Source: Escherichia coli (GTDB lineage Bacteria > Pseudomonadota > Gammaproteobacteria > Enterobacterales > Enterobacteriaceae). Taken from it: DNA of 64,000 bases. The stretch lies in NCBI RefSeq assembly GCF_003018255.1, contig NZ_CP027440.1; one strand, 5' to 3'. Positions 5,501 through 47,931 of this stretch are shown piece after piece. Below the pieces are notes generated by a model that made no database searches, was not told where the DNA came from, and saw only the letters and a program-made list of their open reading frames with translations. The translations under genes were made by a program, and so were the position numbers. Within the stretch, counting starts at the first letter, position 1. The number at the start of each line of letters is the position of its first letter.

Positions 5501-7165
5501 TTATTTATATGCCGACTGGTGAACGCCAACCGCGCGACCAGACGGATCGTCCATTTTCTTGAACGCTTCATCCCACTCAATCGCTTTAGCGGAAGAACAA
5601 GCGACGGAAGGACCGCCCGGCACGCACTCAGCGGCGCTCGGAAGCGGGAACAATTCTTCAAAGATCTCCCGGTACAGATACGCTTCTTTTGAGGTCGGCG
5701 TGTTGTACGGGAAGCGGAAGCGGGCAGTTTCCAGCTGTTGATCAGACACCTGCTGCGCTGCCACTTCTTTCAGGGTGTCGATCCAACTGTAACCGACGCC
5801 ATCGGAGAACTGCTCTTTTTGCCGCCAGGCCACGCTTGCAGGCAGATACGCTTCAAAACATTCACGCAGGATGTGTTTTTCCATTTTGCCGTTACCGCAC
5901 ATTTTATCCTGTGGGTTAATGCGCATCGCCACATCAAGGAATTTTTTGTCGAGGAACGGAACGCGTGCTTCCACGCCCCAGGCTGACATCGCTTTGTTGG
6001 CACGCGCGCAGTCATACATATGCAGGGCCAGCAGTTTACGCACCGTCTCTTCATGCAACTCTTTAGCGTTCGGCGCTTTGTGGAAGTATAGATAACCGCC
6101 AAACACTTCGTCAGAACCTTCACCGGACAGCACCATTTTAATGCCCATCGCCTTGATCTTACGCGACATTAAATACATCGGTGTTGAAGCGCGAATAGTG
6201 GTCACATCATAAGTTTCGATGTGGTAAATCACGTCGCGGATGGCATCCAGACCTTCCTGTACAGTGAAGTGAATTTCGTGATGCACCGTGCCCAGATGGT
6301 TTGCCACTTCCTGGGCTGCTTTCAGATCCGGTGAGCCCGGCAGACCTACAGCAAAGGAGTGCAACTGCGGCCACCAGGCTTCAGAGCGTTCCTGATCTTC
6401 CACGCGACGGGCGGCGTATTTCTTGGTGATAGCGGAAATAATTGAGGAATCCAGACCACCAGAAAGCAGCACACCGTAAGGCACATCAGACATCAGATGG
6501 CTTTTAACGGAATCTTCCAGTGCCTGACGCAGCTCGTTTTTGTCGGTCACGTTATCTTTCACCGCATCGTAGTCGAACCAGTCGCGATGATAATAAGAAC
6601 GGATTTCGCCGTCCTGACTCCACAAATAGCTCCCCGCCGGAAACTCTTTAATCGTGCGGCAAACTGGCACGAGGGCTTTCATTTCTGAGGCCACATACAG
6701 CTGACCGTGTTCGTCATAGCCCATATACAGTGGGATGATCCCCAGATGGTCGCGACCAATCAGATATGCATCTTTTTCGCTGTCGTACAGGGCAAAGGCA
6801 AACATGCCCTGCAAGTCGTCGAGAAATTCCGGCCCTTTTTCCTGATACAGCGCGAGGATCACTTCACAGTCAGACCCGGTCTGGAACTGGTAACGATCGC
6901 CATATTCAGCGCGCAATGCCTGGTGGTTGTAGATTTCACCGTTTACTGCCAGCACATGAGTTTTTTGTTGGTTGTAGAGAGGTTGCGCCCCCGCGTTAAC
7001 GTCAACAATTGACAGACGTTCGTGGGCGAGGATGGCGTTATCGCTGGCATAAATACCGGACCAGTCCGGGCCACGATGACGCATCAGGCGTGACAGCTCG
7101 AGTGCTTTCTTACGCAGCTCAACTGCGTCTGTTTTGATATCGAATACGCCAAAAATTGAACACAT
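5501..7165 (-). CDS. asnB: Asparagine synthetase B (glutamine-hydrolysing)
   Basis: 554-aa ORF, MCSIFGVFDIKTDAVELRKKALELSRLMRHRGPDWSGIY N-terminus (Ntn amidotransferase Cys2). Confidence 0.95.
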   Translation of the reverse strand: MCSIFGVFDIKTDAVELRKKALELSRLMRHRGPDWSGIYASDNAILAHERLSIVDVNAGAQPLYNQQKTHVLAVNGEIYNHQALRAEYGDRYQFQTGSDCEVILALYQEKGPEFLDDLQGMFAFALYDSEKDAYLIGRDHLGIIPLYMGYDEHGQLYVASEMKALVPVCRTIKEFPAGSYLWSQDGEIRSYYHRDWFDYDAVKDNVTDKNELRQALEDSVKSHLMSDVPYGVLLSGGLDSSIISAITKKYAARRVEDQERSEAWWPQLHSFAVGLPGSPDLKAAQEVANHLGTVHHEIHFTVQEGLDAIRDVIYHIETYDVTTIRASTPMYLMSRKIKAMGIKMVLSGEGSDEVFGGYLYFHKAPNAKELHEETVRKLLALHMYDCARANKAMSAWGVEARVPFLDKKFLDVAMRINPQDKMCGNGKMEKHILRECFEAYLPASVAWRQKEQFSDGVGYSWIDTLKEVAAQQVSDQQLETARFRFPYNTPTSKEAYLYREIFEELFPLPSAAECVPGGPSVACSSAKAIEWDEAFKKMDDPSGRAVGVHQSAYK

Positions 7166-7420
7166 AACCTTCTCCGTTAACCTGGTGTTTACTGCGTGTT
7201 GTGTTTACTTGTTAAAAAAATGCCGCAAAGCAGCACGGTGCGCAAGCGATTTGGCAGTGGAAAAATAAAAAACGTAATGGCGATTGCTGATTGATGAAAA
7301 AGGGGAGGGCTTTTGGGTATATTTATTGATGGATCGATAATTTTTGACGGGTTTTATTGAATGGGGTGATTTTAATGATGGGTAAAAATAAGAAACCACG
7401 CCCTGAGGCGTGGTTGCTAT

Positions 7421-8173
7421 TCAGATAACGTCGATTTCAGCGACCGATGGGTAAATCCAACTTGGGCGGAACGGCATACTGTCGATATCGTCGAGTGACG
7501 AAACACCAGAAAGCACCAGAATCGTCTCCAGACCGGCCTGGAAGCCCGCCAGAATATCGGTACGCAAGTTATCGCCGACAATCACCGTTTCTTCCGAATG
7601 CGCCTGCATTTTGTTTAATGCCGCGCGGATGATCCACGGACTCGGCTTTCCAACATAGAACGGTTTGCGCCCGGAGATTTTCTCGATCCCTGCACACAAC
7701 GCGCCACAGGCGGGATAAAAACCGCGCCCGTGGGTGTCCGGGTTGGTGGCGATAAAGCGTGCGCCGTTAGCGACGAAATAGGCTGCTTTATGCATCATGT
7801 CCCAGTTGTAGGAACGCGTTTCGCCAACAATCACAAAATCAGGGTTCACATCGGTAATAGTGAAACCGGCTTTGTACAGTTCATGAATCAGTGCGCCTTC
7901 GCCCACCACATACGCTTTCTTGCCTTCCTGGCGACGCAGGAAATCGGCGGTCGCCATCGCGGAGGTATAAAACACGCTATCCGGTACATCGACACCGGCA
8001 GTGGCAAAGCGATTCGCCAGATCTTGCCCGGTCTGCGAAGGATAGTTGGTCAGCAACACCAGCGGCAGGCCTTTATCCATAATCCCGTGCAAAAATTCCG
8101 CTGCACCCGGTACGGCGACGTTATCGTGCATCAGCACGCCGTCGATATCGCAAATTACATTTTTAATGGTCAT
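7421..8173 (-). CDS. umpH: UMP phosphatase (HAD family, NagD)
   Basis: 250-aa ORF MTIKNVICDIDGVLMHDN... with the HAD DxDGV motif. Confidence 0.93.
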   Translation of the reverse strand: MTIKNVICDIDGVLMHDNVAVPGAAEFLHGIMDKGLPLVLLTNYPSQTGQDLANRFATAGVDVPDSVFYTSAMATADFLRRQEGKKAYVVGEGALIHELYKAGFTITDVNPDFVIVGETRSYNWDMMHKAAYFVANGARFIATNPDTHGRGFYPACGALCAGIEKISGRKPFYVGKPSPWIIRAALNKMQAHSEETVIVGDNLRTDILAGFQAGLETILVLSGVSSLDDIDSMPFRPSWIYPSVAEIDVI

Positions 8174-8220: not shown

Positions 8221-9441
8221 TTAATTTTCCAGCAAATGCTGGAGCAAAATACCGTTGAGCATGGCGCGTTTTACCAGCGCAAAAGCGCCGATTGCTGAGC
8301 GGTGATCCAACTCAGAACGTACCACCGGTAGATTAGTACGAAACGCCTTCAGCGCCTGGGTATTAATGCAGCTTTCAATAGCAGGGAGCAGCACTTTATC
8401 GGCTTCGGTGATTTCTCCAGCAATAACAATTTTTTGCGGATTAAATAAGTTGATAGCAATGGCGATGGTTTTACCCAGATGACGACCGACATATTCAATC
8501 ACTTCCGAGGCCAGGCTATCGCCTTTGTTCGCGGCTTTGCAGATAGTTTTGATGGTGCAGTCGTCCAGTGGCACACGGCTCTGGTAGCCCTGCTTTAACA
8601 GATTCAACACCCGTTGTTCAATGGCAGCATTGGCGGCGATAGTTTCCAGGCAGCCAAAGTTGCCGCAGTGGCAGCGTTCACCCAGCGGTTCGACCTGAAT
8701 ATGGCCAATTTCACCGACGTTGCCGTTGCGCCCGATAAAAATTCGCCCGTTAGAGATAATCCCGGCCCCGGTTCCGCGATGGACACGCACCAGAATGGAG
8801 TCTTCGCAATCCTGACTTGCACCGAAGTAGTGCTCTGCCAGCGCCAGACTGCGGATATCGTGGCCGACAAAACAGGTCACTTTAAAACGCTCTTCCAGTG
8901 CTTCAACCAGCCCCCAGTTTTCTACCTGAATATGCGGCATGTAATGAATTTTGCCGCTGTCCGGGTCTACAAGCCCTGGCAGGATCACCGAAATCGCGAT
9001 CAGCTCGCGTAGCTTGCGCTGGTAGCTATCAATAAACTGAGCAATGGCATTCAGCAGGGCATGTTCCAGCGTCTGCTGGGTACGTTCCGGCAGCGGGTAA
9101 TGTTCTTCTGCCAGCACTTTGCTGCTGAGATCAAACAAGGTGATGGTGGCGTCGTGACGACCAAGCCGTACGCCGATTGCGTGGAAATTGCGGGTTTCGG
9201 TGACGATGGAGATAGCGCGGCGGCCCCCGGTGGAGGCCTGCTGATCAACTTCTTTGATCAGCCCGCGTTCGATAAGCTGACGCGTAATTTTGGTTACGCT
9301 GGCGGGGGCAAGCTGACTTTGCTCGGCAATCTGAATCCGCGAGATTGGCCCGTACTGGTCAATCAGGCGATAAACCGCCGCGCTGTTAAGCTGTTTTACG
9401 AGATCAACATTACCTATCTGAGCTTGTCCGCCTGGTGTCAT
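8221..9441 (-). CDS. nagC: N-acetylglucosamine repressor NagC (ROK family)
   Basis: 406-aa ORF MTPGGQAQIGNVDLVKQLNSAAVYRLIDQYGPISRIQIAEQS... Confidence 0.95.
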   Translation of the reverse strand: MTPGGQAQIGNVDLVKQLNSAAVYRLIDQYGPISRIQIAEQSQLAPASVTKITRQLIERGLIKEVDQQASTGGRRAISIVTETRNFHAIGVRLGRHDATITLFDLSSKVLAEEHYPLPERTQQTLEHALLNAIAQFIDSYQRKLRELIAISVILPGLVDPDSGKIHYMPHIQVENWGLVEALEERFKVTCFVGHDIRSLALAEHYFGASQDCEDSILVRVHRGTGAGIISNGRIFIGRNGNVGEIGHIQVEPLGERCHCGNFGCLETIAANAAIEQRVLNLLKQGYQSRVPLDDCTIKTICKAANKGDSLASEVIEYVGRHLGKTIAIAINLFNPQKIVIAGEITEADKVLLPAIESCINTQALKAFRTNLPVVRSELDHRSAIGAFALVKRAMLNGILLQHLLEN

Positions 9442-9449
9442 ACTTTCTC

Positions 9450-11458
<2,009 letters not shown>

Positions 11459-40312: not shown

Positions 40313-40822
40313 ATGAATCAGCAACGATTTGATGAAAGCACTCTAATCCGTATCTTCGCGCTTTATGAGTTACATCGACTGAAAGAACATGGCTTAACGC
40401 GCGGGGCACTCAACGATTATCACAGCCGCTATAAACTCGTCTTTCTGGCCCATTCCCAGCCCGAGTACCGCAAACTTGGCCCGTTCGTGGCTGATATTCA
40501 CCAGTGGCAAAATCTGGATGACTATTACAACCAGTACCGCCAACGCGTAGTTGTTTTGCTTTCTCACCCCGCCAACCGACGTGACCACACCAATGTTTTG
40601 ATGCACGTTCAGGGTTATTTTCGCCCTCATATTGATTCCACAGAACGCCAGCAGCTGGCGGCGCTTATCGACAGTTATCGCGGTGGCGAGCAACCGCTTC
40701 TTGCGCCGCTGATGCGTATCAAACACTATATGGCGCTTTATCCTGACGCCTGGCTTTCAGGGCAGCGTTATTTCGAACTTTGGCCGCGTGTGATTAACTT
40801 GCGCCATTCAGGAGTTTTATGA
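40313..40822 (+). CDS. ybgA: DUF1722 protein YbgA (cotranscribed with photolyase)
   Basis: Track ORF 40268..40822 trimmed to the ATG at 40313 (CAGGAG RBS): MNQQRFDESTLIRIFALYELHRLKEHG..., 169 aa. Confidence 0.88.
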   Translation: MNQQRFDESTLIRIFALYELHRLKEHGLTRGALNDYHSRYKLVFLAHSQPEYRKLGPFVADIHQWQNLDDYYNQYRQRVVVLLSHPANRRDHTNVLMHVQGYFRPHIDSTERQQLAALIDSYRGGEQPLLAPLMRIKHYMALYPDAWLSGQRYFELWPRVINLRHSGVL

Positions 40823-42237
40823 CTACCCATCTGGTCTGGTTTCGCCAGGATTTACGTCAGCATGATAATCTCGCGCTGGCTGCCGCCTGCCGCAATTCGT
40901 CTGCAAGCGTGCTGGCGTTGTATATCGCTACACCACGCCAGTGGGCGGCGCATAATATGTCGCCGCGTCAGGCTGAATTTATCAATGCACAACTGAACGG
41001 GCTACAAATCGCGCTGGCGGAAAAAGGCATTCCTTTGCTGTTTCATGAAGTGGATGACTTTGCCGCCAGCGTCGAAATAGTTAAACAGGTGTGCGCGGAA
41101 AATCGTGTTACCCATCTGTTTTATAACTATCAGTATGAGGTGAATGAGCGGGCGCGGGATGTGCAGGCTGAGAGGGCGCTGCGTAACGTGGTGTGTGAAG
41201 GATTTGACGACGGCGTGATCCTGCCGCCGGGGGCGGTGATGACTGGCAATCATGAGATGTACAAAGTCTTTACGCCATTTAAAAACGCCTGGCTTAAACG
41301 GCTGCGAGAAGGGATGCCGGAGTGCGTCGCTGCGCCAAAAGTACGTAGTAGCGGATCGATAGATCCCGCGCCATCCATTACGCTGAATTATCCTCGTCAG
41401 CCTTTCGATACTGCGCATTTCCCGGTGGAAGAGAAAGCGGCGATTGCGCAATTACGCCAGTTTTGCCAGAACGGTGCCGGAGAGTATGAGCAACAGCGAG
41501 ATTTCCCTGCGGTAGAAGGCACCAGCCGTTTGTCCGCCAGCCTGGCAACGGGCGGGTTATCGCCTCGCCAGTGTTTGCATCGCCTGTTGGCGGAACAGCC
41601 GCAGGCGCTGGACGGTGGGGCCGGTAGTATCTGGCTTAATGAGCTGATCTGGCGCGAGTTTTACCGTCATCTGATAACGTATTACCCCTCGCTGTGTAAA
41701 CATCGTCCGTTTATTGTCTGGACCGACCGCGTGCAGTGGCAGAGCAATTCCGCGCATTTAAAGGCCTGGCAGGAAGGCAAAACGGGATACCCGATTGTTG
41801 ATGCTGCCATGCGTCAGCTTAACAGCACCGGCTGGATGCATAACCGGCTACGGATGATTACAGCCAGTTTTTTGGTGAAAGATTTATTGATCGACTGGCG
41901 CGAAGGTGAGCGATATTTCATGTCGCAGCTGATTGATGGTGATTTGGCAGCCAATAACGGTGGCTGGCAGTGGGCCGCTTCAACCGGAACCGATGCAGCG
42001 CCGTATTTTCGTATTTTTAACCCGACAACCCAGGGCGAGAAATTTGACCGTGAGGGCGAGTTTATCCGCCAGTGGCTACCGGAACTGCGCGATGTGCCAG
42101 GGAAAGTGGTGCATGAGCCGTGGAAGTGGGCGCAGAAAGCAGGTGTGACGCTGGATTATCCGCAACCGATAGTTGATCACAAAGAGGCAAGGCTGCGAAC
42201 GCTGGCAGCGTACGAAGAAGCGAGGAAAGGAGCCTGA
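40819..42237 (+). CDS. phr: Deoxyribodipyrimidine photolyase
   Basis: 472-aa ORF MTTHLVWFRQDLRQHDNLALAAA...; overlaps the ybgA stop (ATGA). Confidence 0.95.
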   Translation: MTTHLVWFRQDLRQHDNLALAAACRNSSASVLALYIATPRQWAAHNMSPRQAEFINAQLNGLQIALAEKGIPLLFHEVDDFAASVEIVKQVCAENRVTHLFYNYQYEVNERARDVQAERALRNVVCEGFDDGVILPPGAVMTGNHEMYKVFTPFKNAWLKRLREGMPECVAAPKVRSSGSIDPAPSITLNYPRQPFDTAHFPVEEKAAIAQLRQFCQNGAGEYEQQRDFPAVEGTSRLSASLATGGLSPRQCLHRLLAEQPQALDGGAGSIWLNELIWREFYRHLITYYPSLCKHRPFIVWTDRVQWQSNSAHLKAWQEGKTGYPIVDAAMRQLNSTGWMHNRLRMITASFLVKDLLIDWREGERYFMSQLIDGDLAANNGGWQWAASTGTDAAPYFRIFNPTTQGEKFDREGEFIRQWLPELRDVPGKVVHEPWKWAQKAGVTLDYPQPIVDHKEARLRTLAAYEEARKGA

Positions 42238-42279: not shown

Positions 42280-43944
<1,665 letters not shown>

Positions 43945-44031
43945 TTAATATGTCAAAAGATTGGCTATCGACGAACAGGCGAGGTAACGCTATGTTAACG
44001 GTGTAGCTATCAGAATACGGAAGGCGCGAAG

Positions 44032-44775
44032 ATGAAAAACACCGAACTGGAACAACTGATTAACGAAAAACTGAACAGCGCGGCGATTAGTGATTACGCG
44101 CCGAATGGTTTGCAGGTGGAAGGCAAAGAGACGGTGCAAAAAATTGTTACCGGTGTCACCGCCAGCCAGGCTTTGCTCGATGAAGCGGTGCGTCTGGGCG
44201 CGGATGCGGTCATTGTGCATCATGGCTACTTCTGGAAAGGTGAATCTCCGGTCATTCGCGGAATGAAGCGTAACCGTTTAAAAACGTTGCTGGCGAATGA
44301 TATCAACCTGTATGGCTGGCATCTGCCCCTGGACGCGCATCCGGAGCTGGGTAATAACGCACAACTGGCGGCGTTACTGGGGATCACGGTCATGGGCGAA
44401 ATTGAGCCGTTGGTGCCGTGGGGCGAACTGACCATGCCTGTGCCGGGACTGGAACTGGCCTCCTGGATTGAAGCGCGTCTGGGACGTAAGCCGTTATGGT
44501 GTGGCGATACCGGACCTGAGGTGGTCCAGCGCGTCGCCTGGTGCACGGGCGGCGGGCAAAGTTTTATCGATAGCGCCGCGCGTTTTGGCGTGGATGCTTT
44601 TATTACTGGCGAAGTTTCTGAACAGACCATTCATTCAGCCCGCGAGCAGGGATTGCATTTTTATGCTGCGGGTCACCATGCCACTGAACGCGGTGGTATT
44701 CGCGCGTTGAGCGAGTGGCTGAATGAAAATACCGATCTTGATGTGACCTTTATTGATATTCCTAATCCTGCATAA
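44032..44775 (+). CDS. ybgI: NIF3-family metal-binding protein YbgI
   Basis: 247-aa ORF MKNTELEQLINEKLNSAAISDYAPNGLQVEGKETVQKIVTGVTAS... Confidence 0.92.
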   Translation: MKNTELEQLINEKLNSAAISDYAPNGLQVEGKETVQKIVTGVTASQALLDEAVRLGADAVIVHHGYFWKGESPVIRGMKRNRLKTLLANDINLYGWHLPLDAHPELGNNAQLAALLGITVMGEIEPLVPWGELTMPVPGLELASWIEARLGRKPLWCGDTGPEVVQRVAWCTGGGQSFIDSAARFGVDAFITGEVSEQTIHSAREQGLHFYAAGHHATERGGIRALSEWLNENTDLDVTFIDIPNPA

Positions 44776-44797
44776 CGAATAATCAGAGGGATCGAAA

Positions 44798-45454
44798 GTG
44801 CAACGAGCGCGTTGTTATCTGATAGGTGAAACGGCGGTAGTGCTGGAGCTGGAACCGCCGGTGACGCTGGCTAGCCAGAAACGGATCTGGCGACTGGCGC
44901 AGCGTCTGGTGGATATGCCGAATGTGGTTGAAGCCATTCCCGGCATGAACAATATCACGGTGATTTTACGTAATCCTGAGTCGCTGGCGCTGGATGCCAT
45001 AGAGCGTTTGCAACGCTGGTGGGAGGAGAGTGAGGCGCTGGAGCCGGAGTCTCGCTTTATTGAAATTCCGGTGGTTTACGGTGGCGCAGCCGGACCGGAT
45101 TTGGCGGTGGTCGCGGCGCATTGTGGATTGAGCGAAAAACAGGTTGTTGAATTGCACTCCTCCGTGGAATACGTGGTCTGGTTTTTAGGTTTTCAACCGG
45201 GCTTCCCGTATCTCGGGAGTTTGCCGGAACAACTACACACGCCACGGCGCGCTGAACCGCGCTTGCTCGTTCCGGCAGGTTCTGTCGGGATCGGCGGGCC
45301 GCAGACTGGTATTTATCCGTTGGCAACGCCGGGTGGCTGGCAGTTGATTGGTCATACCTCACTCAGCCTGTTTGATCCGGCGCGTGACGAACCCATCTTA
45401 TTACGTCCGGGAGACAGCGTGCGCTTTGTACCGCAGAAGGAGGGAGTATGCTGA
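44798..45454 (+). CDS. pxpB: 5-oxoprolinase subunit B (YbgJ)
   Basis: 218-aa ORF starting at GTG: (M)[36 protein letters not shown]... Confidence 0.9.
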
Positions 45455-46380
45455 AGATTATTCGTGCGGGTATGTATACCACTGTGCAGGATGGCGGTCG
45501 TCACGGTTTTCGCCAGTCGGGTATCAGCCACTGCGGCGCACTGGATATGCCTGCGCTGCGCATTGCTAACCTACTGGTGGGTAATGACGCCAATGCCCCC
45601 GCGCTGGAGATCACGCTCGGTCAGTTAACGGTTGAGTTCGAAACTGATGGGTGGTTTGCTCTGACGGGGGCCGGTTGCGAAGCGCGGCTGGATGATAACG
45701 CCGTCTGGACCGGCTGGCGATTGCCGATGAAAGCAGGCCAGCGTTTAACGCTTAAACGCCCGCAGCACGGGATGCGCAGTTATCTGGCGGTCGCGGGTGG
45801 TATTGATGTTCCGCCGGTAATGGGGTCATGCAGCACCGATCTCAAAGTGGGGATTGGCGGGCTGGAAGGCCGTTTACTGAAGGATGGTGACCGACTCCCG
45901 ATTGGCAAATCGAAGCGTGATTTTATGGAAGCGCAGGGCGTTAAACAGCTGCTGTGGGGCAACCGCATTCGCGCCTTGCCGGGGCCGGAATATCATGAGT
46001 TCGATCGCGCCTCGCAGGATGCATTCTGGCGTTCGCCCTGGCAGCTTAGCTCGCAAAGTAACCGAATGGGCTATCGCTTACAGGGGCAAATTTTAAAACG
46101 CACCACCGATCGCGAACTGTTATCTCACGGTTTGTTACCGGGCGTGGTGCAGGTGCCACATAACGGGCAGCCGATTGTGTTGATGAACGACGCACAGACC
46201 ACCGGTGGTTATCCGCGTATTGCCTGTATCATTGAGGCTGATATGTACCATCTGGCGCAAATTCCGCTCGGTCAGCCGATTCATTTTGTCCAGTGTTCAC
46301 TGGAAGAGGCACTGAAAGCACGGCAAGATCAACAACGTTATTTCGAACAATTAGCGTGGCGGCTGCACAATGAAAATTGA
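45448..46380 (+). CDS. pxpC: 5-oxoprolinase subunit C (YbgK)
   Basis: 310-aa [36 protein letters not shown]...; overlaps pxpB by 7 nt. Confidence 0.9.
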
Positions 46381-47104
46381 CCTGAACGCCGATCTGGGCG
46401 AAGGCTGCGCCAGCGACGCAGAGCTATTAACGCTGGTTTCCTCTGCCAATATTGCCTGTGGATTTCATGCAGGCGATGCGCAAACCATGCAGGCTTGCGT
46501 GCGTGAAGCCATAAAAAATGGTGTTGCGATTGGCGCTCACCCGAGTTTTCCCGACAGGGAAAATTTTGGGCGCAGCGTCATGCAGCTGCCGCCAGAAACC
46601 ATTTACGCCCAGACGCTGTATCAAATTGGCGCGCTGGCAACGATTGCCCGTGCGCAAGGCGGTGTTATGCGTCATGTCAAACCTCACGGCATGTTATACA
46701 ACCAGGCAGTGAAAGAGGCACAACTGGCAGACGCCATCGCCAGAGCGGTATACGCTTGCGATCCGGCATTGATTCTCGTCGGACTGGCGGGAAGCGAGCT
46801 GATTCGTGCAGGCAAGCAATATGGCCTGACAACGCGCGAGGAAGTGTTTGCCGATCGCGGTTACCAGGCTGACGGCTCGCTGGTGCCGCGAAGCCAGCCA
46901 GGCGCGTTGATTGAAGACGAAGAACAGGCGCTGGCGCAAACGTTGGAGATGGTGCAACACGGCAGAGTCAAAAGTATCACCGGCGAATGGGCAACGGTCA
47001 CGGCGCAAACGGTCTGCCTGCATGGCGACGGCGAGCACGCACTGGCATTCGCCCGCCGACTACGCTCTACATTTGCCGAAAAGGGGATTGTTGTCGCAGC
47101 ATAA
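46370..47104 (+). CDS. pxpA: 5-oxoprolinase subunit A (LamB/YcsF family, YbgL)
   Basis: 244-aa [39 protein letters not shown]...; overlaps pxpC by 11 nt. Confidence 0.9.
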
Positions 47105-47139
47105 CCCCGTTTAATAAAGAATGAAAAAAGGATATCACC

Positions 47140-47931
47140 ATGCCTGAAGGCCCGGAGATCCGCCGTGCAGCGGATAACCTGGAGGCGGCGATCAAAGGCA
47201 AACCACTAACTGATGTCTGGTTTGCCTTCCCGCAGTTAAAACCTTATCAATCACAACTTATCGGTCAACACGTTACCCATGTGGAAACGCGTGGTAAGGC
47301 GTTGTTAACTCATTTTTCCAACGACTTAACGCTCTACAGCCATAATCAGCTTTACGGCGTCTGGCGCGTGGTTGATACCGGCGAAGAGCCGCAGACTACG
47401 CGAGTATTGCGGGTAAAACTGCAAACGGTTGACAAAACCATTCTGCTTTATAGCGCCTCGGATATTGAGATGTTGACGCCGGAACAACTGATCACGCATC
47501 CGTTTTTACAACGAGTCGGCCCCGATGTGCTGGATCCGAATCTGACGCCGGAGGTGGTAAAGGAACGGTTATTGTCGCCGCGCTTTCGTAACCGTCAGTT
47601 TGCTGGATTACTGCTCGATCAGGCGTTTCTGGCTGGGCTTGGCAATTATTTGCGGGTGGAGATCCTCTGGCAGGTTGGGTTGACTGGAAATCATAAAGCG
47701 AAAGATCTCAGTGCGGCGCAACTGGATGCACTCGCACACGCGTTACTGGATATTCCTCGATTTTCCTACGCTACGCGGGGGCAGGTGGATGAGAATAAGC
47801 ATCATGGGGCGCTGTTTCGCTTTAAGGTTTTTCATCGTGATGGCGAACTGTGCGAACGCTGTGGCGGCATCATTGAGAAAACCACGCTGTCATCTCGCCC
47901 GTTTTACTGGTGCCCTGGCTGTCAGCACTAG
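47140..47931 (+). CDS. nei: Endonuclease VIII (DNA glycosylase/AP lyase)
   Basis: 263-aa [31 protein letters not shown]... (N-terminal PEGPE catalytic motif), C-terminal zinc finger CERCG...CPGCQ. Confidence 0.95.

Follow-up and report, generated by a model that had tools for sequence, protein, structure and literature searches.

We found that the ybgI-pxpB-pxpC-pxpA-nei gene string in a 64,000-nt stretch of Escherichia coli DNA (the window) is an operon already known from this species, and it very probably consists of a ybgI gene at an old chromosomal position joined by a clade-restricted pxp insert, an adjacency that is no proof of a role for YbgI in 5-oxoproline metabolism. The window is 95–100% identical to E. 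coli chromosomes, and at least 80% of a 4.17-kb query running from the intergenic region upstream of ybgI through nei (43762–47931) is present in 5422 of 5426 complete genomes. The locus matches ybgIJKL-nei of E. coli K-12 (b0710–b0714; Gifford and Wallace, 2000) in its five genes, in their order and strand and at every junction, and nothing of substance differs. The features of the locus are as follows.

43762–44031, + strand: 270-nt divergent intergenic region between the starts of dtpD and ybgI, which holds the ybgI operon promoter or promoters.
44032–44775, + strand: ybgI, NIF3/DUF34 dinuclear-metal hexameric protein (PF01784, 225 bits against 23.4, residues 1–246 of 247; TIGR00486, 276.9 bits against 130.55; NF008064, 531.6 bits against 414).
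44776–44797, + strand: 22-nt ybgI-pxpB spacer, which contains the pxpB ribosome-binding site.
44798–45454, + strand: pxpB (ybgJ), 5-oxoprolinase subunit B (PF02682; TIGR00370 equivalog, 355.2 bits against a cut-off of 145.55).
45448–46380, + strand: pxpC (ybgK), 5-oxoprolinase subunit C (PF02626; NF045499, 594 bits against 500).
46370–47104, + strand: pxpA (ybgL), 5-oxoprolinase subunit A of the LamB/YcsF family (PF03746; NF003812, 512 bits against 378; PDB 1XW8 'ybgL').
47140–47931, + strand: nei, endonuclease VIII (Fpg/Nei domains; NF007763, 500 bits).

The first-pass annotation had named four genes, ybgI to pxpA, and these identities are borne out by Pfam, by NCBIfam equivalogs above their cut-offs for PxpA, PxpB and PxpC, and by the RefSeq names given to identical E. 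coli DNA, which are the same in MG1655. Its gene string omitted nei, however, which lies beyond the stretch that it covered, on the same strand and 35 nt past pxpA; nei is convergent with abrB, and the two overlap by 4 nt. There are no Rfam families matching at E ≤ 1 between 43600 and 48100. YbgI matches the toroidal hexamer 'ybgI' of PDB 1NMO/1NMP over residues 1–247 (E = 9.9e-169), and these structures contain Fe or Mg. Among 49 relatives, three residues of its dinuclear metal site (H64, H215 and E219) never vary and three more (H63, H97 and D101) are conserved in at least 90%; the conserved set described for NIF3/DUF34 is five His, one Glu and one Asp (Reed et al., 2021). PxpC matches PDB 5DUD 'YbgK' across all 310 residues (E = 4.2e-215). 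All three 5-oxoprolinase subunit families are thus present above equivalog cut-offs, and their genes are clustered co-directionally. In the published reaction scheme, 5-oxoproline is phosphorylated by PxpB and PxpC, and ring opening by PxpA yields glutamate. The prokaryotic enzyme is described as a three-subunit, ATP-dependent 5-oxoprolinase (PMC13274462, citing Niehaus 2017), for which pxpBCA would be a self-contained cassette.

The junctions between the genes are exactly as the first-pass annotation gave them: the ORF listing and the raw sequence agree to the base on a 22-nt gap between ybgI and pxpB, a 7-nt pxpB/pxpC overlap (ATGCTGA) and an 11-nt pxpC/pxpA overlap. From ybgI to nei the distances are therefore 22, –7, –11 and 35 nt, with all genes co-directional. 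pxpB starts with GTG and has a Shine-Dalgarno sequence, AGAGGGA, 7 nt upstream; the overlap of stop and start codons points to translational coupling of pxpB, pxpC and pxpA. A consensus scan found no promoter-like or terminator-like sites in the gaps, which is weak evidence either way, and folding found no RNA structure in the 22-nt spacer (0 kcal/mol). The same scan found no + strand promoter site in the dtpD-ybgI region (43762–44031), where sigma-70 sites and start sites at 742,030 and 741,874 (older MG1655 coordinates) have been reported for ybgI (PMC3798280). In NC_000913.3, ybgI lies at 742,827. With a shift between the two MG1655 coordinate versions that we take to be about 778 nt, the mapped start sites would precede the ATG by approximately 19 and 175 nt, at about 44013 and 43857 in the window. 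Because the scan missed this experimentally mapped promoter, its negative results are weak evidence.

That ybgI and the pxp genes form one transcript, as the first-pass annotation had proposed, is supported by the short gap with neither signals nor structure and by a published operon of which nei, according to the title of the paper, is the terminal gene (Gifford and Wallace, 2000, NAR 28:762). If nei is terminal, as that title says, the transcription unit is longer than the four genes first listed. From this literature and the absence of intervening signals, we infer that ybgI-pxpBCA-nei is co-transcribed in E. coli; the five genes would be read from the promoter or promoters in the dtpD-ybgI intergenic region. 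We consider it quite unlikely that pxpBCA, with or without nei, owes most of its expression to a promoter in the 3' part of ybgI and is regulated separately from ybgI, in which case the overlaps would be uninformative about ybgI. The scan found no + strand promoter-like site within ybgI or the gap, the 22-nt spacer has room for a ribosome-binding site only, and the title of the nei paper treats the genes as one operon. A separate promoter does gain something from the little weight that a negative scan carries and from sister families, in which hairpins behind ybgI and 100–400-nt spacers point to separate signals.

To test whether the linkage is conserved, we scanned genomes with a 13-sequence YbgI alignment and scored the presence of pxpB-pxpC downstream of ybgI in 80 species-level ybgI loci with YbgI identities from 97% down to 52%. 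We found that pxpB-pxpC is downstream of ybgI in 27 of the 80 loci, and that these belong only to Enterobacteriaceae (13/14), Yersiniaceae (6/6), Erwiniaceae (4/4) and Pectobacteriaceae (4/4). Within these four families the linkage is nearly complete (27/28, at YbgI identities of 97% to 66%); it is absent from the remaining 53 loci, which include the sampled Morganellaceae, Budvicia (Budviciaceae), Pasteurellaceae, Orbaceae, Vibrionaceae, Aeromonadales and Alteromonadales. This sample represents YbgI relatives of at least 52% identity, and we extended it with distant NIF3 proteins taken from 50%-identity representatives; seven were looked up and one, P0169, was left out (1.3-kb contig), and at the six loci that remained there are no pxp genes (0/6). 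Linkage thus reaches beyond Enterobacteriaceae into three further families and stops there among the groups sampled. The adjacency is found in four sister families of Enterobacterales rather than in independent lineages, a pattern that fits one inherited insertion and not repeated association, and some selection could conceivably keep ybgI and pxp together in the four families.

The reverse comparison gave the same picture. At ten diverse pxpA loci, from plasmids and chromids, a NIF3 HMM found no matches within 6 kb of pxpA (0/10); in the literature the enzyme has three subunits, and at these loci NIF3 is not a recurrent fourth component of it. In published neighbourhood data, the lists for Proteobacteria and Gammaproteobacteria rank the pxp COGs next to COG0327, as does the all-Bacteria list, which owes them to these two, and every other class or phylum list is without them (Reed et al., 2021, Data Table S7); our wider claim of no association draws in part on a Gene Context Tool table from 2020. 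In the same study of NIF3/DUF34 neighbourhoods, YbgI is the type member without a PII-like insert, and the recurrent partners of the family are COG1579, a sigma factor, primase and TrmK, not pxp (Reed, Hutinet and de Crécy-Lagard, 2021). Its main text has no mention of pxp or 5-oxoprolinase, which appear only as listed metal-dependent neighbours; the ybgI-pxp association is already tabulated in published supplementary data. The first-pass annotation had reasoned that conserved linkage would suggest a functional tie, and these counts do not support that step, as the linkage is confined to one clade (0/10 pxpA loci, 0/6 distant NIF3 loci). Since ybgI is beside pxp only in four related families, the adjacency is weak evidence for joint function. 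A pathway link would be valuable because NIF3/DUF34 is among the most widespread families without an agreed molecular function; the lineage-restricted ybgI-pxp adjacency, which fits a single insertion, is not a reliable one, and taxonomic breadth should be checked before tight spacing in E. coli is read as functional coupling.

Of the 27 loci with the cluster, 26 keep the 7-nt pxpB/pxpC overlap, and pxpC and pxpA mostly share 11 or 14 nt; the same overlaps recur across species, and these junctions are not chance. The ybgI-pxpB gap is 11–43 nt only in Enterobacteriaceae and 103–418 nt in the other three families; in Rahnella it is about 1.8 kb, with an opposite-strand MFS gene in between. An alignment showed that the pxpB Shine-Dalgarno sequence and GTG/TTG-CAA-CG start are conserved across the four families. 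Alignment and folding also placed a strong, terminator-like hairpin right after ybgI in Serratia plymuthica (–23 kcal/mol, followed by UUUUU), and there are hairpins of this kind at the same place in S. silvae (–16.9 kcal/mol, z = –3.9) and Pantoea stewartii (–17.7 kcal/mol, z = –4.4). The Rosenbergiella and Yersinia spacer hairpins are not significant (z about –1.5), and consensus scans of Yersinia, Pectobacterium, Serratia and Pantoea spacers returned one weak terminator-like site only, in Yersinia. The ybgI-pxpB geometry is therefore not constant: the spacer can be as short as 11 nt or as long as about 1.8 kb, and some lineages have hairpins or an intervening gene there. Because the spacer is short only in Enterobacteriaceae, and consistently so, ybgI and pxpB would be read together there, and co-expression is probably real in that family.

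The genes around ybgI suggest how this arrangement arose. gltA is within the fetched flank of 12 of 13 Vibrionaceae loci, 4 of 4 Morganellaceae loci and Budvicia, as well as 17 of the 27 pxp-bearing loci (17/28 across the four families), and pgm is in the flank of 12 of 13 Vibrionaceae loci. In loci that show both pxp and gltA, the pxp genes sit between ybgI and gltA. ybgI would then be the older resident of a position between seqA-pgm and gltA-sdhCDAB, and the pxp cassette, often with DUF969-DUF979-pcp, occupies the ybgI-to-gltA interval in the four families, which it probably entered in their common ancestor; a local operon fusion of ybgI with pxp, through the short spacer, would have followed in Enterobacteriaceae. 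With ybgI at an old position and the spacer short only in this family, the adjacency reads as shared ancestry plus local operon fusion. In many species a DUF969-DUF979-pyroglutamyl peptidase block lies between pxpA and nei, and with this block beside pxp the insert is a coherent 5-oxoproline module without ybgI. The enterobacterial pxpBCA-DUF969-DUF979-pcp module of Citrobacter, Pseudocitrobacter, Serratia, Yersinia, Erwinia and Pantoea is the same cassette in the same interval downstream of ybgI. In contrast, E. coli is without the DUF969-DUF979-pyroglutamyl peptidase block, and pxpA therefore directly abuts nei.

The same flanks raise the question of whether the meaningful partners of ybgI are the DNA-repair genes phrB (upstream) and nei (downstream), with pxp an interloper and YbgI acting in DNA damage tolerance, for instance as a support for metal-dependent repair enzymes. 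The order phrB-ybgI-nei occurs without pxp in Budvicia and Klebsiella sp. BIGb0407. Of 29 loci from Enterobacteriaceae, Yersiniaceae, Erwiniaceae, Pectobacteriaceae and Budvicia, 28 have phrB upstream of ybgI, and in two Alteromonadales, Lacimicrobium and Bowmanella, phrB is about 700 nt or less from ybgI. RefSeq gives YbgI the product name 'radiation resistance protein YbgI'; photolyase and Fpg/Nei COGs are listed among the gammaproteobacterial neighbours, DNA glycosylase and NUDIX families are among those ranked highest (Reed et al., 2021), and a structure paper has it as 'putatively involved in DNA repair' (Reed et al., 2021, Table 1). However, the same table records that a ybgI mutant survives UV without loss, the phrB/nei linkage is absent in Morganellaceae, Pasteurellaceae, Vibrionaceae and most Alteromonadales, an opposite-strand gene lies between phrB and ybgI in Alteromonadales, and NIF3 contexts overall are very diverse. 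We therefore regard a repair role as unlikely.

Metal is the other possible bond between YbgI and its neighbours. YbgI could act as a metal chaperone or insertase that loads or maintains the divalent metal of 5-oxoprolinase, as the enteric counterpart of an Nramp-type Mn2+ importer, and we judge this very unlikely. It draws on the conserved dinuclear site with Fe or Mg in the YbgI structures, on 27/28 linkage in the four families, on a metal insertase or chaperone role proposed for the NIF3 family (Reed et al., 2021) and on a supplement to that paper in which PxpB, PxpC and PxpA are tabulated with Mg2+ and Mn2+. In B. subtilis, Vibrio fischeri, A. tumefaciens and M. luteus, pxpABC shares an operon with an Nramp gene, and the B. 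subtilis operon member YcsG imports Mn2+ (PMC10448178). Among our ten pxpA loci, Nramp transporter genes adjoin pxpA in two plasmid loci and lie about 4.5 kb off in a third. Set against this, NIF3 and pxp are not associated outside one clade, and the spacers of the sister families are long, with hairpins. 5-Oxoprolinase activity has reportedly been reconstituted from three B. subtilis proteins alone, which also speaks against a need for YbgI. Organisms without a linked NIF3 gene depend on pxpABC for 5-oxoproline use (PMC13274462), the Nramp-like PxpT of C. glutamicum is argued to transport 5-oxoproline and not metal, and the one partner named in an E. coli interactome paper is YqhD, not a Pxp protein. 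In a broader version, the metal-dependent enzymes whose genes adjoin ybgI in enterobacteria, PxpA/5-oxoprolinase foremost, would have in YbgI a dedicated factor for their metal loading or repair; this seems to us just as improbable. If it were true, the operon fusion in Enterobacteriaceae would reflect selection to make chaperone and client together, and PxpA/5-oxoprolinase would be the first bacterial client enzyme for the NIF3 family.

Other PxpABC systems, such as ycsF-kipI-kipA of B. subtilis and pxpTABC of C. glutamicum, share with E. coli the LamB/YcsF, CT_C_D and CT_A_B subunits in clustered, overlapping genes. E. coli differs from them in its B-C-A order and in having ybgI and nei as neighbours, with no adjacent Nramp-type transporter or dedicated regulator; the partners at other PxpABC loci are Nramp transporters, biotin carboxylase/BCCP, TRAP or ABC transporters and GntR regulators. 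We set aside a YbgI-PxpB fusion (P0002) as evidence of coupling, because just one sequence shows it, and the 4.5-kb contig from which this comes has a second internal deletion as well. The eukaryotic 'fusions' in the Reed supplement (Trichuris, Beauveria) seem to be contamination, to judge by their E. coli-style names. Among protein relatives of YbgI, the best 120 listed are all at least 75% identical to it and apparently enterobacterial.

In the E. coli window, ORF calls checked against the raw sequence place ybgI directly ahead of the genes for 5-oxoprolinase subunits B, C and A.

44032-44775, + strand: ybgI
44798-45454, + strand: pxpB (GTG start; Shine-Dalgarno AGAGGGA 7 nt upstream)
45448-46380, + strand: pxpC
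46370-47104, + strand: pxpA
47140-47931, + strand: nei, starting 35 nt after the end of pxpA
47928 onward, - strand: abrB, convergent with nei, the 3' ends of the two genes overlapping by 4 nt

The 22-nt ybgI-pxpB gap and the overlaps of 7 nt (pxpB/pxpC) and 11 nt (pxpC/pxpA) are exactly those claimed in the first-pass annotation; its coordinates ended at pxpA, omitting nei, which completes the gene string. The ybgI, pxpB, pxpC and pxpA products are assigned to PF01784 (NIF3), PF02682, PF02626 and PF03746, and all four pass the cut-offs of the NCBIfam equivalog models for YbgI, PxpB, PxpC and PxpA. The three proteins that we searched against solved E. coli structures all matched: YbgI (1NMO/1NMP), PxpC (YbgK; 5DUD) and PxpA (YbgL; 1XW8). 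E. coli chromosomes match region 43762-47931 at 95-100% identity, and at least 80% of this region is present in 5422 of 5426 complete genomes. RefSeq, MG1655 included, uses the names ybgI, pxpB, pxpC, pxpA and nei, and calls the YbgI product 'radiation resistance protein YbgI'.

The proposal that ybgI and the pxp genes form one transcript is supported, and the operon is already known. A consensus scan of the 22-nt gap found no promoter-like or terminator-like match, no RNA structure was predicted there (0 kcal/mol), and Rfam families gave zero matches in the ybgI-pxp region. An internal promoter belonging to pxpB is unlikely in E. coli. In the Gifford and Wallace operon, ybgI, ybgJ, ybgK and ybgL reportedly lie upstream of nei. 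The title of that paper (Gifford and Wallace, 2000, NAR 28:762) states that nei is transcribed at the end of an operon, and sigma-70 sites and start sites are published for the ybgI promoter (PMC3798280). The ybgI start in NC_000913.3 is 742,827. If, as we assume, the MG1655 version shift is about 778 nt, the reported sites map roughly 19 and 175 nt ahead of the ATG, within the 270 nt that separate dtpD from ybgI.

Taken together, our data indicate that the E. coli region is very probably a known operon in which ybgI is an old neighbour of the 5-oxoprolinase genes, not their partner. NIF3/DUF34 neighbourhoods have been analysed before (Reed, Hutinet and de Crecy-Lagard, 2021; PMC8469502). The pxp families are absent from the top-20 table of co-occurring COGs in that study; in its Data Table S7, the lists for Proteobacteria and for Gammaproteobacteria rank COG2049, COG1984 and COG1540 straight after COG0327, two of the three are also present in the all-Bacteria list, and the pxp COGs are absent from Betaproteobacteria, Deltaproteobacteria, Epsilonproteobacteria, Firmicutes, Actinobacteria, Bacteroidetes and the other phyla shown. 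These rankings therefore already place on record both the NIF3-pxp association and its gammaproteobacterial restriction.

To score this linkage across species, we aligned YbgI representatives of 50%-identity clusters and scanned one genome per GTDB species, which gave 80 loci (L001-L080, each with local coordinates). Each came with flanks of about 8 kb, and YbgI identities ran from 97% to 52%. The presence of pxpB-pxpC downstream of ybgI was scored by tblastn with the E. coli neighbour proteins.

Loci with pxpB-pxpC downstream of ybgI (at pxp-negative L057 and L074 the downstream flank covers only about 1 kb)
Enterobacteriaceae: 13/14
Yersiniaceae: 6/6
Erwiniaceae: 4/4
Pectobacteriaceae: 4/4
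Morganellaceae: 0/4
Budvicia: 0/1
Unplaced MAGs: 0/2
Pasteurellaceae: 0/8
Orbaceae: 0/2
Vibrionaceae: 0/13
Aeromonadales: 0/3
Alteromonadales in the broad sense: 0/19

With pxpB-pxpC found in four families only, the 80-locus scan does not bear out the first-pass suggestion that conserved linkage reflects a functional tie. None of six more distant NIF3 genes (37-53% identity) has pxp families nearby; their neighbours are degS/zapG/zapE/rplM, hisD-hisC and petABC, tolQRAB or other unrelated genes. Conversely, no NIF3 HMM match occurs within 6 kb of pxpA at any of ten diverse plasmid or chromid loci (Burkholderia, Levilactobacillus, Thermus, Pseudoalteromonas, Methylobacterium, Leisingera, a Klebsiella plasmid, Ralstonia, Deinococcus and a Pantoea plasmid), where the genes accompanying pxpA encode Nramp transporters, biotin carboxylase/BCCP, TRAP or ABC transporters and GntR regulators. 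An operon that unites pxpABC with the Nramp gene ycsG is described for B. subtilis, Vibrio fischeri, A. tumefaciens and M. luteus (PMC10448178). In the Vibrionaceae, one species at least therefore has pxp away from ybgI, and H. influenzae has its own pxpABC cluster (PMC11932112).

In the three-subunit enzyme, PxpB/PxpC phosphorylate and PxpA opens the ring (PMC13274462); all three are listed as Mg2+/Mn2+ enzymes in a supplementary table of PMC8469502, a paper in which NIF3 proteins are proposed to act as chaperones or insertases for metals. That YbgI serves PxpA as a metal chaperone is highly unlikely: the idea draws on this family-level hypothesis and on the frequent Nramp partner of pxp genes, but an Nramp-type transporter of C. 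glutamicum is argued to carry 5-oxoproline.

To place ybgI in its chromosomal context, we grouped the ORFs from every locus into clusters and assigned Pfam families to these. The conserved backbone consists of (ybfF)-seqA-pgm upstream and gltA, on the opposite strand, then sdhCDAB downstream, and the pxp genes sit within the ybgI-to-gltA interval. The fetched flank contains gltA in Vibrionaceae (12/13, the same fraction as have pgm near ybgI), Morganellaceae (4/4), Budvicia and 17 of the 27 pxp-bearing loci (17/28 loci of the four families). Budvicia aquatica (L040 6548-9587) and Klebsiella sp. BIGb0407 (L013 6578-9617) have phrB-ybgI-nei without pxp, ybgI and nei being 42-87 nt apart. This arrangement suggests that in Budvicia the adjacency of ybgI and nei is older than the pxp insert, and that the Klebsiella strain has cleanly lost that insert. 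A link of YbgI to DNA repair fits phrB, nei and the RefSeq product name, with slightly wider neighbourhood support than that of pxp; the phrB/nei neighbourhood is also patchy, however, and a UV phenotype is reported as lacking, so this reading is unlikely.

The phrB gene (window 40819-42237) overlaps the upstream ybgA (L001 52-561) by 4 nt, and the pair ybgA-phrB precedes ybgI in most Enterobacterales and also in Lacimicrobium and Bowmanella, two of the Alteromonadales. Between phrB and ybgI, Yersiniaceae carry a class-II cAMP phosphodiesterase gene (PF02112; L015, L023 at 6837-7877, L024, L028, L029), and Escherichia, Citrobacter, Kluyvera, Pseudocitrobacter, Superficieibacter and strain RIT691 carry dtpD; both ybgI flanks therefore take up insertions.

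The junctions within pxpBCA are conserved: of the 27 species, 26 share the 7-nt overlap of pxpB and pxpC, values of -11 or -14 nt predominate between pxpC and pxpA, and the pxpB Shine-Dalgarno and GTG/TTG-CAA-CG start are kept across the species compared, so that pxpBCA behaves like a fixed cassette. The ybgI-pxpB spacer, unlike these junctions, varies from 11-43 nt in Enterobacteriaceae to 103-224 nt in Erwinia, Pantoea, Rosenbergiella, Pectobacterium, Brenneria, Acerihabitans and Serratia, about 417 nt in Yersinia and about 1.8 kb in Rahnella, where an MFS gene on the opposite strand intervenes. Three loci have a strong hairpin directly 3' of the ybgI stop.

L020 8754-8788, Serratia plymuthica: 14-pair GC-rich stem, -23 kcal/mol, then UUUUU
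L015 8748-8781, S. silvae: -16.9 kcal/mol, z = -3.9
L017 8751-8777, Pantoea stewartii: -17.7 kcal/mol, z = -4.4, without a U tract

These predicted structures fit a separate ybgI transcript, ending just after the gene, in the three lineages; simple consensus scans of the spacers for promoters and terminators were otherwise uninformative. The pxp module may have been inserted once, in an ancestor shared by all four families, with the spacer shrinking later in Enterobacteriaceae and occasional pxp losses.

In many species, the pxp genes are followed by DUF969 (PF06149), DUF979 (PF06166), pyroglutamyl peptidase (PF01470) and then nei. This block (L002 11123-13491; also L007, L015, L016, L017, L023, L024, L026, L055) occupies the pxpA-nei or pxpA-gltA interval in many Enterobacterales. 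Pyroglutamyl peptidase frees 5-oxoproline from peptides, so the insert is a coherent 5-oxoproline module that makes sense without ybgI; the DUF969 and DUF979 membrane proteins are a candidate transporter for 5-oxoproline or pyroglutamyl peptides. Unlike many Enterobacterales, E. coli has lost the block at this locus. At five loci, three in Enterobacteriaceae and both Rosenbergiella species (L006, L012, L014, L031, L033), pxpA is missing with pxpB-pxpC intact; in L006, pxpC ends at 10339 and nei starts at 10353.

One protein, P0002 (425 aa), joins YbgI residues 1-243 in frame to PxpB from about residue 22. We discounted it as a sign of coupling; it is a single sequence on a 4467-nt NCBI contig with a second deletion inside PxpB, and is probably a strain-specific deletion or assembly artefact. 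The Trichuris and Beauveria 'fusion' proteins in the Reed supplement look like enterobacterial contamination and were also set aside.

In nine Alteromonadales loci (L054, L056, L057, L058, L066, L067, L073, L075, L080), a same-strand SAM-dependent methyltransferase gene (Methyltransf_11/25) adjoins ybgI downstream (about 8750-9570); in eight of the nine, the two genes are spaced by -65 to +23 nt. The methyltransferase is a tight ybgI partner, other than pxp, that is specific to the Alteromonadales lineage.
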